Shown piece by piece: positions 14,476 through 56,343 of a DNA stretch of 64,000 bases. Each line of letters begins with the position of its first letter. Position 1 is the first letter of the stretch. The stretch is from contig OZ024758.1 in the NCBI GenBank assembly GCA_964016885.1, forward strand, positions 16,678,001 through 16,742,000. The letters are read 5' to 3'. The position numbers and the translations under genes were made by a program. The notes below the pieces were generated by a model. It saw only the letters and a program-made list of their open reading frames with translations, searched no databases and had not been told where the DNA came from. The DNA comes from Eledone cirrhosa. Taxonomy: Eukaryota.

Positions 14476-14830
14476 TATATATGTGAAGACAAACATAGAA
14501 TATTCGAAAATATTCTGTATGTTTATAATAAACATTTTGAAGACCTAATCGCTAGAATAGAATACGTCACGTATTACAATTTGAGATTCTCGATAAAAGC
14601 AAGGTAAGTATTCTATAAGTCTCTAGCTGTGTCATTCTCGATAGAAGCACTGGATATGTAATCCTGATGATTTCTAATAAGAATGAAACGCGTAGGTTAC
14701 TTCCCTTGCTTTTATCGAGAATCTCAAATTGCAATACGTGACGTATTCTATTCTATAGCGATTAGGTCTTCAAAATGTTTATTATAAACATACAGAATAT
14801 TTTCGAATATTCTATGTTTGTCTTCATATA
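14476..14830. mobile_element. Fold-back mini-element (~125-bp inverted arms) with a hammerhead in the spacer, (TA)n-flanked
   Basis: 14480-14604 is the reverse complement of 14704-14827 with few mismatches. Confidence 0.85.
14658..14700 (+). ncRNA. Minimal type I hammerhead ribozyme
   Basis: gtaatc CTGATGA t ttct aata agaa t GAAAC gc GTA ggttac: stem I gtaatc/ggttac, stem II ttct/agaa, palindromic stem III ACGCGT, GUA cleavage triplet. Confidence 0.85.
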
Positions 14831-15111
14831 TATATATATATAAATGTATATATATATATATAAATATATAAATATATATAAATATAAATATATAAATATA
14901 TATATAATATATATATATAAATATATATATATAAATATAAATATATAAATATAAATATATATATATATAGTAATACATTTGAAGACTAAAATCCAAAGAG
15001 GGCTCGATAAGGTTAAATATATATATATATATATATATATATATATATATATATATAAAAAAGTTTGGTCAATCAATGATAAAAGTTGATTGCCAAATAA
15101 ATTAACTATGG

Positions 15112-15180
15112 AGATATAAAAGATACAGAAGCGAAAACTAACCAAACAGTGAGTGTGTTCTGTTATTATTTCTGGCCATT
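15112..15180 (+). mobile_element. Fragment of the PLE 3' terminal repeat region
   Basis: agaagcgaaaactaaccaaacagtgagtgtgttctgttatt matches 50430-50470. Confidence 0.75.
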
Positions 15181-15757
15181 GACTCTTAAGAGCTCCTTTG
15201 CCCTTTGACAGGTTTTGTTTTTAGTCCTGCAGGATGTCAAAAGTCACCCTCCTCACCCAGAAACCTTGGTGGGGTTGCCAGTTTAGTCGCCAACGACCCG
15301 ACTATGGGACAGGTTGTACTGGAATACATGTTACCAGTAGCAACCAACATATATGGTGACCTGACATATATATACATACATACATACATACATACAATTA
15401 TATATATATATATATATATATATATATATATATATATTTATATATATATAATTGGTGTTGTATGCTTAAAGCGTCCGTATGCGGTATGAGCACTGAATGC
15501 CCTCGTAGAGCAGAGTATGATATCACAGAAAAAAGAGAATCAGTGTTGAGGACTATAGGAACATCTGCATCGTAGAATAGAGACGTATCCGATTTCAGAG
15601 TCAGGTTTGATCACCATATCAATCGTGCCTCGAGCTGGTCGCCCGAGAAACAATTGTAATATGTCCAATAAATTCCTTTCGCCGCAACACTGATTCTCTT
15701 TTTTCTGTATATATATATATATATATATATATATATATATATATATATATATATATA

Positions 15758-15973
15758 ACAAAGGAATTGGGGTAAGGCACCATATGGACCATACAGCACC
15801 AGAGTACTCAATACTTAGGGAAGTAGAGTGGGAAATATATATATATATATATATATATATATAGGAAAAAGTATGACCCCGACGGCAGAGCTCAAGCCGT
15901 TTCGACGGCTATTTCAGTCCAGAAAAGCCGTCGAAACAGCTTTAGCTCTGCTGCTGGGGTCATACCTTTTCCT
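15758..15973. mobile_element. Fold-back mini-element (hairpin 15862-15973 plus one-sided extension 15758-15832)
   Basis: Near-perfect ~110-nt palindrome. Same family as 26047-26243; TA-flanked. Confidence 0.8.
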
Positions 15974-18900
15974 ATATATATATATATATATATGATAGAT
16001 AGATATAGATATATTTACGCACAAATTTATATATATATACGTATATGTAACGTTATTTTAATCAGTATGAATTAGTTATATTAGGAAAGAAATAACTTTT
16101 CTTAGTTATGTAGTGCTTCTTTTAGTAATCTACGCTGGGAGTTATGATAAATAAATTCAATTCATTCTAAAATTTCAAAACATGTCGAGGTTTGTTGTTA
16201 CTATTTTTTTAATGTATTTTCTCCTCAAAAATATATCTCTATAGCATTATTTTTCTCGAAAACAAATGAATAATATATAGATGAATAATAAATCAACTGA
16301 ACGTAAAATGCGTTTTAAAATATAAGATAATCTAATTGGTAGAAAGACTTGGTAAAATCACCATCATTGTAAAGATATGAACGATATATATATATATATA
16401 TATATATATATATATATATGTGTGTATATATATAACATATATATCTACACACACACATATATAATATGTGTGTGTATACATATGTGTGTATATATGTATA
16501 TATATATATATATATATATATAGAATATATATGTGTCTATATATATAATGTATATATATATATATATAATATATATATATGTATATATATTATACATGTG
16601 TGTGTATATATATATATATAGAATGTATATATATATATATGTGTGTGTGCGTATATGTATAGAATATATATGTGTGTCTATATATATAAATGTATATATA
16701 TTTAATATATATATATGTATATATATCAATATGTATATGTATATAGATACATATATATTTATATATACATATATATGTGTGTGTGTATATATATATATGC
16801 ATATATATATAAACATTTATACACACATATATATATACATATATGTGTATATATACGCCCAACTATATATATACACACATATATATATATATATATATAT
16901 ATATTCATATACATATATATAAACACACACACACAAATATATATTTATATATATATATATATATATATATATTATTTTCCAGAAAGAAAACTCAACGTAT
17001 TGAAATATCCCCATTGAGAGTTAGAGGTTGAAAAACTGATGGAATATAAAATTAACTTTCCACATATTGAAACCAATCTAAAATACAAAATGAAAAAAGC
17101 AATGATAACGTAGAAAAAAAATACTCTTCCATATACTTCCATAGCTATTTCTAACGTAATCTTCTTTTGCTTGCTGAAAAGGAACGATATATACATACAT
17201 ACATACAAGCATAAACAAAACCTATATATTTTGTGACTAGATTAGAATTGTATATTTTACAACACTAAATTAATATTAGGAACTATAAAAGCTGAAAAAA
17301 AGCTGAAGGAAGAAAAAAAAATGAAATGCAATATACACATAAGAGAAAAAGGCAAGACTGGTGACGTATTAAACAGATTAAGATAAGTGTGAGAATACAC
17401 ACCCTGCACACATATATTATGTTAAATGTAGATTTGTATAAATACAAATGGATATATATATATATATATATATATATATATTTACACAACTACCTTTGTA
17501 TTAGAGTGTGTATATATATAAATATATATACTGTATATATATAAAATATGTATAATATGTATATATATATAAAATATGTATATATATATGTGTATATATA
17601 TATAAAATATGTATATATATATATGTACAAATATATAAAATGTGTGTATATATATATATATATATGTATAAATATATAAAATGTGTATATATATATATAT
17701 GTATAAATATATAAAATGTGTATATATATATATATATATGTATAAATATATAAAATGTGTATATATATATAAAATGTGTGTATATATATATATATAATAT
17801 GTATATATATATATAATATGTATATATATATAATATTTATATATAAAATGTGTATATATATATATATATATGTGTATATATTATATATATATGTATATAT
17901 ATATAATATTTATATATAAAATGTGTGTATATATATATATATATATGTGTATATATTATATATATATGTATATATATCTATATATATATACATATATTAT
18001 ATATATATATATATATATATATACACATATATAAATATATATATCTATATATGTATATATTATGTGTATATATATTTTATATGTATATATTATATTTGTA
18101 TTTTATATATATTTAAATATATGTGAGTGTATATACATATATATATTATATCTACAAAAAACAGAAGTATATATATATATACACACAATCATACACACCT
18201 AAACACACAAACATATATATGTATATTGCACATTCATACACAAGCATTTACACCAACATATATTATTCAAACCCTACCTTAATTGAGTTTAATTTTTTCC
18301 TCATATATTTTTCACACGATCGAATTCGCTTCCTTCCCACCTAGAATAGAAAAAAATATATCACAATAACGTGCTAAAATTTCTGTGAAAAGATTGTACA
18401 AGCAGACATTTTATTTCAATGTAGTATATATGTATGGCATTTTTATTTAAATGTGTTTATCTGCTAGACAATAGATGGTTTTTGCCCAAGTATTTAAGTT
18501 GTCATAATTCACATAATAGAGATTGAAATTAATGTCCTAATTGATGGATTACAAGTTTAACAATTTGGTCATCTCTGTGGAAAACAGATAATTTGGCTTG
18601 TTGAGGGGAAGAGATAAATCAGACAACTGACTAAATCTTAATAAGATTCAGTATATCTTCTGATGGGTGGCTTTCTATAATATCTTCCTATTGTCTTTTA
18701 TCCAATGTTTGCCTACGAAATAATTAATTGCAATTTAGTAATCATAGCATGTGGTATATACATACGTGTGTGTGTGTGTGTGTGTGTGTGTGTACGTGGG
18801 GTATTATGATGGATTGACATCTAGACCGGAATTTACATATGTTTGCATTATATATATATATATATATATATGTATATATATATACATGTGTGTGTGTATT

Positions 18901-54913: not shown

Positions 54914-54949
54914 TTATATATATATATATATATATATATATATATATAT

Positions 54950-55246
54950 AATATTATAATGAAATGACAGGAGGCTGGATTTGTGTAAATCCTTGAAAGG
55001 TTTATTATACTATGATCATTTCAATGACCGGTTCCATATGAATCCGGTGATGATATCAAGTATTCGAAATATAATACGTGAATGTAATAGATAAAATCCA
55101 TGGGGCTGAAAATCAAGGACCCGAGGGCGACCGCCATCCACCACCCTCTACCTTTGCCGGTCGCCCTCGAGTATAGTACAATAAGTATAATAAACCCTTT
55201 CAAGGATTTACACAAATCCAGCCTCCTGTCATTTCATTATAATATT
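54950..55246. mobile_element. Fold-back mini-element (~60-bp arms), TA-flanked on the left, with an internal GC hairpin
   Basis: aatattataatgaaatgacaggaggctggatttgtgtaaatccttgaaagg and its reverse complement at 55196-55246. Confidence 0.8.
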
Positions 55247-55742
55247 TAACTCCGTAATAGCACCACCAACTACAAAAACAAAGACGGTTGAACTGCTTTA
55301 CGTTGAGTACTCTCTATATTATTACATTGCGATTGACCATACGGAATTGACCAGCTCTATCCAGTGGTGAACCTCAAACCTGAATAAATATATATAGAGA
55401 GAGAAGAGAGAGAGAGAGAGAGAGAGAGAGAGAGAGAGAGAGAGAGAGAGAGAGCGAGAGAGAGAGAGAGAGAGAGAGAGAGAGAGAGAGAGAGAGAGAG
55501 AGAGAGAGAGAGAGAGAGAGAGAGAGAGAGAGAGAGAGAGAGAGAGAGAGAGAGAGAGATATCTACAAAACCAAATTGTAAAATTATAATATAAAATTAA
55601 ATTAAAGTCATTAATTTCTTTATATATATATATCTATATCTATCTATATCTATATATAAGGAAGCTCTACCCAGGAAGCTCAACCGTTAAGGTTGTCTTT
55701 TTTTTCCGGGTAAGTCAATATTTATTTATAAAACAAATCTAT

Positions 55743-55806
55743 ATTTTATCTGATGAAAGCGCACCATAATTTGCCTTGGTTGCCCTTGAAATATATATAA
55801 TAAAAT
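55743..55806 (+). ncRNA. Type I hammerhead ribozyme (25.2/26.3-kb family)
   Basis: attttat CTGATGA aagcgcacca taatttgcct tggttgccctt GAAA tatata TA ataaaat. Confidence 0.8.
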
Positions 55807-56035
55807 AAATATGGTTTTATAAATATAGTTTCCATTTATTTATATATTGTATATATATATATATATATATATATATAGAATATTTACGTATAGAGAGAGA
55901 GAAGGAGAGATAGGAGATACATGTAGTTATTTGCCAATAGCGTATGCAGAGGGTGCTCAATACTAGTGCCGGCATTGTTAAATATTAAAAGTGTTAATAT
56001 CTAGTGGGCGAGAGAGCTAGCAGAGCGTAATAAAC

Positions 56036-56343
56036 ACGTGGAGAAGTAAATATAGGAGAACAAACCGTTAAAACATGTTTATTTAAAATAGCACATACGT
56101 ACGTTTCACCCGAATGGGCTTCTCAAGGGCATAAATAACTAAAAAGCGTTCCTTACATGACGCGGAATGGGTTTTTACGTGAACTTATTTCTAAGTTCAC
56201 GTAAAAACCCATACCGGGTCATGTAAGGAACGCTTTTTAGTTGTTTATGCCTTTGAGAAGCCCATTCGGGCGAAACGTACGTAGGTACTATTTTAAATAA
56301 ACATGTTTTAACGGTTTGTTCTCCTATATTTACTTCTCCACGT
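56036..56343. mobile_element. Fold-back mini-element (~150-bp arms, 4-nt loop) with a variant hammerhead in each arm
   Basis: Centre gaactta-tttc-taagttc. Plus arm 56248-56287 reads tgcc TTTGAGA a gccc attc gggc GAAAC gtac GTA ggta; the mirror arm reads CTTGAGA. Confidence 0.85.

Follow-up and report, generated by a model that had tools for sequence, protein, structure and literature searches.

What made the mirror-image inserts that lie against (TA)n arrays in a 64,000-nucleotide stretch of the Eledone cirrhosa genome (contig OZ024758.1, positions 16,678,001 to 16,742,000; the window)? A sequence-only reading had taken them for non-coding, hammerhead-bearing mini-retroelements whose complementary DNA (cDNA) primes itself into a hairpin, with a Penelope-like element (PLE) at 46–50 kb as autonomous partner. 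The mirror-image stretches are real, and are mostly truncated back-to-back copies of PLEs together with a few ribozyme-bearing repeats. The inserts are probably (we put this at roughly 0.7) back-to-back (TA)n insertions of the 3' ends of at least five PLE families and of three non-coding repeats, a single RNA likely having been copied from both cut ends of the target.

Masked self-comparison and direct alignment of the window revealed inverted repeats at all 11 sites claimed to hold palindromic inserts, close to the positions given for them (14.5, 15.9, 19.7, 21.2, 23.7, 24.8, 26.2, 27.2, 40.4, 55.1 and 56.2 kb). The arms of the small inserts are 73–98% identical to one another, and the 1282-nt arm pair of the 46–50 kb PLE (46020-47301 and 49238-50519) is 100% identical. 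Most inserts abut (TA)n, as had been said of nearly all of them, although the 19.7 kb insert does so on one side only. The 27.2 kb palindrome differs in geometry, with (TA)n lying at its centre (tail-to-tail). The window is 30% GC and very rich in (TA)n, with 7.1 arrays per kb compared with 1.8 per kb in blind samples.

Hammerheads were sought with a strict type I scan, defined by a C3-G8 core and stems I to III, using block shuffles and the reversed sequence as controls. Eight were present in the window (14664+, 21221-, 21244+, 23638-, 24721-, 25218-, 26357- and 55750+), with none in 30 block shuffles and none in the reversed window; an earlier version of the scan with short stem II gave six against a shuffle mean of 0.07. 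Around 11 damaged or variant copies were recognised by eye or, for 56253+, by a scan for the U3-A8 core. These comprise 56253+ and its partner arm, 24835+ (stem I lost), 50271+ and 46268- in the PLE, ~27075+ (U4C), 19729-, 19757+, 44491-, ~20170- and ~55075-, so that the earlier count of about 14 was a fair one. Half cores were also seen: 40637+ is one, and the 15.9 and 26.2 kb palindromes retain only the 3' half of their hammerhead. Type I features (CUGANGA and GAAA cores, three stems, an NUH site) thus occur beyond chance. An Rfam scan of the window yielded 358 matches, and the best 150 of them, mostly microRNA-like hairpins and TA matches, included no hammerhead; the lowest-energy predicted folds display the hammerhead shape only in part.

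The inserts and their relatives were assigned to families A to K. Five of the 11 inserts (15.9, 21.2, 24.8, 26.2 and 56.2 kb) are 5'-truncated head-to-head ends of four PLE families that possess an open reading frame (ORF), one of Neptune type (F) and three of Hydra type (B, D and K), and the view that all inserts are mini-elements was therefore abandoned. The family B insert at 26046..26243 is 93–96% identical to copies with the ORF upstream, and in the parent an open frame of 791 codons lies within a tandem unit of 3544 bp (L380; L-numbers, such as L016 and L110, are labels of the genome loci examined) and encodes a protein with the Hydra motifs RLRWRT, SDKTG, CNCPDRSIC, CNLC and CKH. The family D insert, with two strict hammerheads (21221- and 21244+) and a 100-nt stem II region, belongs to an element that continues through a long simple-sequence untranslated region (UTR) into a Hydra-type ORF (L110, L112, L259, L283) in a 5384-bp partial tandem; the D protein has the motifs RVRWRA, SDKTG, CNCRNKANC, CRLC and CNH. 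B and D thus have the motifs of the Hydra clade, with RWR in place of the described RWK, and (TA)n insertion and hammerheads in the pseudo-long terminal repeats (pLTRs) are found in B, D and K. Family K is known only from endonuclease pieces, which are 29–43% identical to the D protein and end 330–370 nt upstream in 12 of 41 matches (11 loci). Judged by motifs, and for K by endonuclease similarity, the three are assigned to the Hydra clade. For family F a PLE endonuclease ends ~190 nt upstream in L016, L033, L034 and L115-L118, and the parent protein shares 55–70% amino acid identity with the PLE of the window. Linking each family to a PLE ORF, as had been proposed, thus succeeded for B, D, F and K and failed for C, G, H and J.

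Two candidate interpretations of these families were discarded. Family B was considered as a fixed hairpin mini-element, with 40 of 40 top matches showing one centre and 785 exact centres, but blind copies vary in centre and the parent is linear and ORF-bearing. The cores of K and B, taken for dead, were reinterpreted as the published U3-A8 covariant, which is present in all 25 family B loci fetched. In a further family B palindrome (L205:1100-2250) long A-rich and T-rich runs stand in place of the centre, perhaps owing to stuttering of the reverse transcriptase (RT) at the turn.

The geometry of the inserts bears on their origin. Each family has two fixed outer end points, an arm end and a tail end, and variable centres; a head-to-head insert usually uses one fixed end per side, both against (TA)n. 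Of 14 tail-less family F arms, 13 stop within query bases 239-253, 12 of these at base 240, and family A arms end at unit base 170-172 or 193-204. The arms of one insert are mostly concordant and share minor alleles (at 8 or more sites in L060 and L185; the allele columns of family F were left out of this comparison because of a wrong arm-end setting), so a single template is likely. Arm lengths were compared in 32 distinct family D pairs (16 and 16 from two rounds, two repeats having been removed, with "equal" meaning within 5 nt; one arm of L282 was entered as 321, its junction reading, rather than the printed 303, leaving its class unaffected). The tail-less arm was longer in 12, the tailed arm in six, and 14 were equal. 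The corresponding ratios were 4:3:1 in eight distinct insertions of family K and 3:4:1 in eight of family A. A longer tail-less arm cannot have been templated by one cDNA primed at the tail, so two primings are likely.

These data are consistent with a series of events in which a GIY-YIG endonuclease would cut both strands within (TA)n, and both 3' ends would then prime reverse transcription on the same RNA, each at one of two fixed start sites. Both cDNAs would mostly stop early; one might then fold back and extend, so becoming complementary to the other, or the ends might be joined by microhomology, and repair would leave a palindrome with a tail on one side. Such priming agrees with what is reported for a purified PLE protein, which nicks and extends both strands from two start sites bounding the tail and has no need of hammerhead cleavage in vitro (PMC11167929). 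The hammerheads, lying 20–250 nt from the start sites, may simply be carried along, and families with weak or half cores (family I and that of the window PLE) have spread too. A pile-up of 5' ends at the hammerhead cut was considered and set aside: five of 30 family D tailed arms start 0-11 nt after the cut, but stem-I microhomology and the query start, 12 nt after the cut, explain this equally well.

The strongest rival is self-priming only, in which one cDNA folds on itself and the hairpin integrates, and in a related proposal Arkhipova et al. read palindromic junctions as the product of self-priming (PMC3846280). The alleles common to both arms are as expected of it, and so are the 14 equal family D pairs with a tight turn, where permutation gives 5.8 (5 of 23 against 1.6 once the stem-I hot spot is removed, p 0.016); this excess points to a tight fold-back at the centre. 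Under self-priming, however, the tailed arm should contain the whole of the tail-less arm, and the reverse holds in the 12 family D pairs mentioned above and at 14.5, 23.7, 25.1-25.4 and 55.1 kb in the window. Moreover, five of the 32 pairs overlap by 14 nt or less, and in L058 and L111 there is no overlap between the arms; a single fixed base marks the stop of the second arm; and the 4-nt centre of family B occurs in both orientations to the tail (10:4, in 14 of 15 loci picked by pattern, and also within one subfamily). We consider self-priming unlikely as the whole explanation. What had been claimed of insertion by PLEs, of (TA)n targeting, of genuine hammerheads, of their abundance across the genome and of a fold-back turn at many centres is supported, and self-priming as sole mechanism is not.

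A clearly weaker alternative is that two independent insertions, or two RNAs, entered one (TA)n array in opposite directions. The pair at 27.0-27.4 kb, whose tails meet at a central (TA)n, would be explained in this way, as would similar short pairs at 19.0 and 25.4 kb, and a 10-nt duplication is discordant between the arms of four of ten distinct family D palindromes. Head-to-head pairs, by contrast, have no TA between the arms, combine one tailed with one tail-less arm and share minor alleles, and in the blind sample nine of ten divergent hammerhead pairs within 1 kb had the same stem III type compared with two of four convergent pairs; independent insertion is accordingly improbable. Inverted duplication at the DNA level from (TA)n cruciforms, with no retrotransposition, is rendered conceivable by the TA-rich genome and by some palindromes without TA (20.5, 57.0 and 57.6 kb). 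Yet each family has its own bases at which the outer ends fall, no duplication extends into unique flanks, and in the blind sample eight of 20 family F sites were head-to-head against five of 106 sites of an abundant SINE-like repeat (under a stricter rule, two pairs among 145 matches), so the form is not generic and we regard this origin as very improbable. Family B was head-to-head at 10 of 25 blind sites, a figure inflated by the B query being itself a palindrome. Fold-back chimeric reads in the assembly would suit the identical arms of the PLE, and short-read contigs were too short for any to bridge the 21.2 kb centre, but with small arms differing by 2–27%, tails on one side that fall at fixed bases, a form that recurs at many loci while the centre varies, and a contig of run X5 (from another study and organism code) that switches strand within family A, such artefacts are ruled out for the small inserts and have a negligible chance overall.

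Several points weigh against two-ended priming. Support for the mechanism comes from genomic geometry. Either arm may have lost sequence by later deletion, for which the stem-I repeats provide 10 nt of microhomology (L282), so a longer tail-less arm does not strictly exclude self-priming. The discordant 10-nt duplication would be explained by two templates or by slippage, and the 27.2 kb palindrome has the opposite geometry. The family loci were best matches of selected queries and not a random draw. Finally, no parent ORF was linked to C, G, H and J, and no partner enzyme to A, E and I.

To estimate abundance, the scans were applied to a blind sample of 86 10-kb stretches at round coordinates (860 kb in total). 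Eighty strict hammerheads were found in 39 of the 86 stretches, 11 of them in one array, compared with 0-1 in ten rounds of shuffling and none in reversed sequence. For a genome of 3.0 Gb this would extrapolate to about 2.8 x 10^5 (bootstrap 1.8-4.1 x 10^5). Distance to (TA)5 was measurable for 77, of which 60 lay at most 300 nt upstream of the array, compared with 22% of random positions; the excess over shuffles and the enrichment beside (TA)n, both of which had been set as checks, were therefore borne out. Among 111 cores chosen without requiring stem I, stem I was present in 66 (4/150 in shuffles) and a palindromic stem III in 44 (3/150). Stem III was self-complementary in 62 of the 80, although the scan partly favours such stems, and the hammerheads likely act as dimers that cut multimeric RNA. 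The U3-A8 scan gave a weak excess, six against 0-3 in shuffles. Some families are abundant and others are not: rough counts of sites in the sample were 25 for B, 20 for F, 20 for the end of the window PLE (the last two may partly coincide), 11-12 for the G types, seven for D, six each for C, E and I, one for A and none for J and K. At least ten further hammerhead families, none of them in the window, were seen in the blind sample (among them L075, L083, L121, L293, L082:6401, L315:3376, L104, L089 and L286), several with a long stem II or a 3-nt loop III.

A motif, RTTGAGYDC, is common to the tails of B, D, G, J and K and to the piece at 19.9 kb, 51–87 nt from (TA)n. In the blind sample 30 of 84 occurrences lay 40-75 nt before (TA)4, compared with 0/42, 1/79, 0/28 and 3/18 for four control motifs. 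Two occurrences are found in the intact family D element, one 80 nt past the first end and one ~115 nt past the second. It is tempting, though rather doubtful as a whole, to suppose that a quarter of a million hammerheads, at ~20x the axolotl density, record two-ended priming by a PLE enzyme pair with closure by a fold-back, that RTTGAGYDC, shared by otherwise unrelated tails, positions the Hydra-type RT and so lets non-coding RNAs parasitise it, and that U3-A8 ribozymes work in active Hydra families.

The PLE at 46–50 kb is itself 5'-truncated. Its frame has 911 of ~1216 codons, many genome copies having frames of 1215-1219 codons, and its inverted arm (1282 nt) and 41-nt tail (50520-50560) flank the rest; the tail corresponds to the first codons of the next ORF, and tandem copies of the family repeat every 4124 bp. 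A single ORF with RT and C-terminal GIY-YIG endonuclease, these tandems, the inverted 5'-truncated arm and the one-sided tail are those of an endonuclease-containing (EN+) PLE. The linker HCTNRKCIIC (CX4CxxC), two Cys within the GIY-YIG core and His residues downstream (CCHH) are motifs that point to the Neptune clade. Pfam gave no match for the full-length frame and missed both full-length PLE proteins; for the window protein RVT_1 scored E 2.5e-4, below the Pfam cut-off, but YVDD and YSI..YIGET are in the sequence and its Atlas neighbours (0.96-0.97) bear RVT_1, HTH_animal and GIY-YIG. All 114 scored genome matches to the RT were 100% identical over 357 amino acids, indicating a very young family. 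The cores at 50271+ and 46268- have a 6-bp stem II, a wobble-palindromic stem III and a stem I of only 2 bp, and failed the strict scan. The role of autonomous partner assigned to this element could not be upheld, since it is truncated and no insert could be linked to it as partner, and three of the four linked families are Hydra-type, with a protein that barely aligns with its own (best blastp E 0.01). More fragments of its family lie at 12490-12785 (-, 97.6% identical) and 15114-15179 (-, 90%), and its flanks (45070-46020 and 50561-51090) are compound (TA)n and AATT-unit arrays, which may grow at insertion sites. Both Neptune-type pLTRs also have a AAGATGGCG or AAAATGGCG motif (24790-24800 and 50222-50232), presumably YY1-like, 45-50 nt upstream of the hammerhead, and several family F copies turn just 5' of it.

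Three inserts (14.5, 23.7 and 40.4 kb) stem from non-coding tandem repeats, namely 312- and 466-nt retrozymes and a ~630-nt half-core repeat. In the 14.5 kb insert the tailed arm (-) covers unit 35-199 and the tail-less arm (+) unit 251-312 and 1-172. Arrays of the 312-nt unit of family A are 97–99% identical, reach 17 units and switch strand head-to-head; a related array (L302) contains 11 hammerheads. The 466-nt unit of family E holds an inner TA run, its period having been observed in one locus (L267). Both A and E are non-coding tandems with a type I hammerhead per unit in the size range of retrozymes (150-450, up to ~970 nt). Family I had only the half core in 20 loci examined and no complete hammerhead per unit, and so spreads like a retrozyme but is not classed as one. 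No parent ORF was linked to family G in 30 loci, bar one possible case in L350, or established for C, E, H, I and J in the loci examined. Relatives of family H (L055, L194, L313, L323, L186, L304) often have a U4C core (CCGAUGA or CCGAAGA; compare window 27060-27110), a second core variant besides U3-A8. The hammerhead of family J is decayed in the window insert, and its core is present in L246 and L150.

Table 1. Positions of PLE-derived and ribozyme-related features in the window.
Feature	Position	Strand	Description
Family A, 312-nt tandem retrozyme, head-to-head	14448..14835	.	(TA)n on both sides
Family A, strict type I hammerhead	14658..14700	+	self-complementary stem III, GUA triplet
Family B, older Hydra-type PLE stump	15758..15975	-	left tail split by TA run; palindrome 15864-15975; 3' half only of U3-A8 hammerhead
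Family C, palindrome	19648..19848	.	damaged hammerheads 19729-, 19757+; intact in relatives L103, L121, L300
Tail-like piece	19890..19975	-	RTTGAGYDC 51 nt from (TA)n; second copy 44579-44633 (+)
G-related head-to-head remnant	20046..20203	.	decayed hammerhead, motif-bearing tail
Family D, Hydra-type PLE end, head-to-head	20893..21436	.	tailed arm - (tail 20893-21027), tail-less arm +
Family E, 466-nt tandem retrozyme, head-to-head	23342..24181	.	long tail-less arm - with strict 23638-, short tailed arm +
Family F, Neptune-type sister PLE end, head-to-head	24533..25084	.	55-nt tail at right; hammerheads 24721- (strict), 24835+ (stem I lost)
Family G, head-to-head pair	25112..25393	.	tail-less arm - with strict hammerhead 25218-, short tailed arm +
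Family B, young Hydra-type PLE stump	26046..26243	-	58-bp arms turning at hot spot, 84-nt tail
G-related single arm	26261..26431	-	strict hammerhead 26357-
Family H, tail-to-tail pair	27021..27380	.	central (TA)n; U4C-variant hammerhead near 27075+
Family I, ~630-nt non-coding tandem repeat, head-to-head	40253..40704	.	half core only (40637+), 62-nt tail
Family C, single copy	44407..44501	-	damaged hammerhead 44491-
Neptune-type PLE, 5'-truncated	46020..50560	+	frame 47263-49998; (TA)n long on both sides
Family J, head-to-head pair	54950..55390	.	long tail-less arm -, short tailed arm + with RTTGAGYDC
Family G, single tail-less arm	55681..55849	+	strict hammerhead 55750+
Family K, Hydra-type PLE end, head-to-head	55915..56345	.	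left tail 55915-56035; U3-A8 variant hammerhead 56253+

Other repeats were recorded in the window. Palindromes without adjacent (TA)n lie at 20478-20602, 56982-57039 and 57564-57666; blind relatives were found at two sites for the one at 57.6 kb and at none for that at 20.5 kb. Short repeated pieces abutting (TA)n (14970-15016, 19006-19097, 20805-20863, 21511-21570) are likely tail-only stubs of further families, the 15.0-kb piece having eight blind sites, seven of them with TA. The SINE-like repeat (~123 sites/Mb) clusters at 30.3, 35.0-36.4, 39.8, 41.0, 57.7, 58.3 and 62.3 kb; a head-to-head pair of this 185-nt repeat at 51620-52080 is flanked by an 18-nt direct repeat, as if from a single event, and the pair at 30.3-30.7 kb is tail-to-tail. 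A putative tRNA-derived head was read by eye from box-like motifs; no tRNA gene was detected by ARAGORN. Unconnected with the hammerhead families are long minisatellite or tandem arrays at 1560-3450 (30-nt unit), 9200-10900 (AT-rich unit) and 41300-43320 (150-200-nt units).

The form of the inserts, presented earlier as new, proved to be known already. The Hydra clade, (TA)n targets, tails and inverted copies truncated at the 5' end are described in PMC8557442, self-priming is proposed in PMC3846280, and opposite-strand hammerhead pairs 100-700 bp apart are attributed to truncated PLEs in PMC4209133, which also reports the U3-A8 core. Families B and D, with K by endonuclease similarity, resemble Hydra-clade EN+ PLEs (PMC8557442) in their C-terminal endonuclease and their RWK-like, DKT, CxCX5C, CxxC and CxH motifs, and also in pLTR hammerheads, (TA)n insertion, partial tandems, an inverted 5'-truncated copy and a one-sided tail. 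They differ from the Hydra PLEs described there in unit length (3.5-5.4 kb, where those described are generally under 3 kb), in 3' UTRs of 0.3-2.5 kb, in tail length (84–137 nt against 30–40), in the U3-A8 cores of B and K, in the 100-nt stem II of D, and in an estimated tens of thousands of stumps per family. The window PLE is like Neptune PLEs (PMC8557442) in its RT with C-terminal GIY-YIG, CX4CxxC linker, CCHH arrangement, microsatellite target, 4124-bp tandems and a 41-55-nt tail equal to the ORF start, and has an Asn-rich insert as in Adineta Penelopes (PMC3846280); its very recent burst and its hammerhead with a 2-bp stem I are unlike them.

Similar comparisons apply to the ribozymes. 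Animal retrozymes have been defined (PMC7229834) and derived from PLEs (bioRxiv 10.64898/2026.07.22.740005), and the 312- and 466-nt arrays resemble such non-LTR retrozymes of metazoans in being non-coding tandems of low GC with one type I hammerhead per unit that co-occur with PLEs. Unlike those, the present arrays lie within (TA)n, have their ends at two fixed bases and change strand in head-to-head fashion; the terms "palindrom" and "head-to-head" are absent from the main text of the preprint, and "inverted" from PMC7229834 as far as it is accessible. The hammerheads share with minimal PLE hammerheads (Cervera and de la Pena 2014, PMC4209133) a palindromic stem III, an extra base before stem II, the U3-A8 covariant, many families per genome, mostly solo occurrence and opposite-strand pairs 100-700 bp apart. 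Their density is ~93/Mb; counts elsewhere are ~9,000 for Xenopus tropicalis and, in PMC7229834, 126,247 for the axolotl with its 28-Gb genome, a rough comparison as descriptors differ.

In LINE-1 twin priming both target ends prime on one RNA and an inversion results. The E. cirrhosa inserts are unlike its products in that their second start site does not vary and one arm is usually a duplicate of the other. No paper listed in a literature search, which left most subscription journals uncovered, dealt with hammerheads of cephalopod PLEs or explained PLE palindromes by two-ended priming.

The individual parts therefore belong to known families and the outline is known; the unusual density and geometry bear on an open mechanistic question, the origin of tandem and inverted PLE insertions and the function of their hammerheads being named as unresolved in PMC8557442. 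The genome combines families that are both very young and abundant (at least 114 identical RT copies in one case, and one of Hydra type at 99%) with many thousands of junctions, numbers that let two-ended priming, the role of the tail motif and the function of the hammerhead be tested statistically and in vitro. Among its microsatellites lies a large fraction of PLEs and ribozymes that repeat annotation can overlook.

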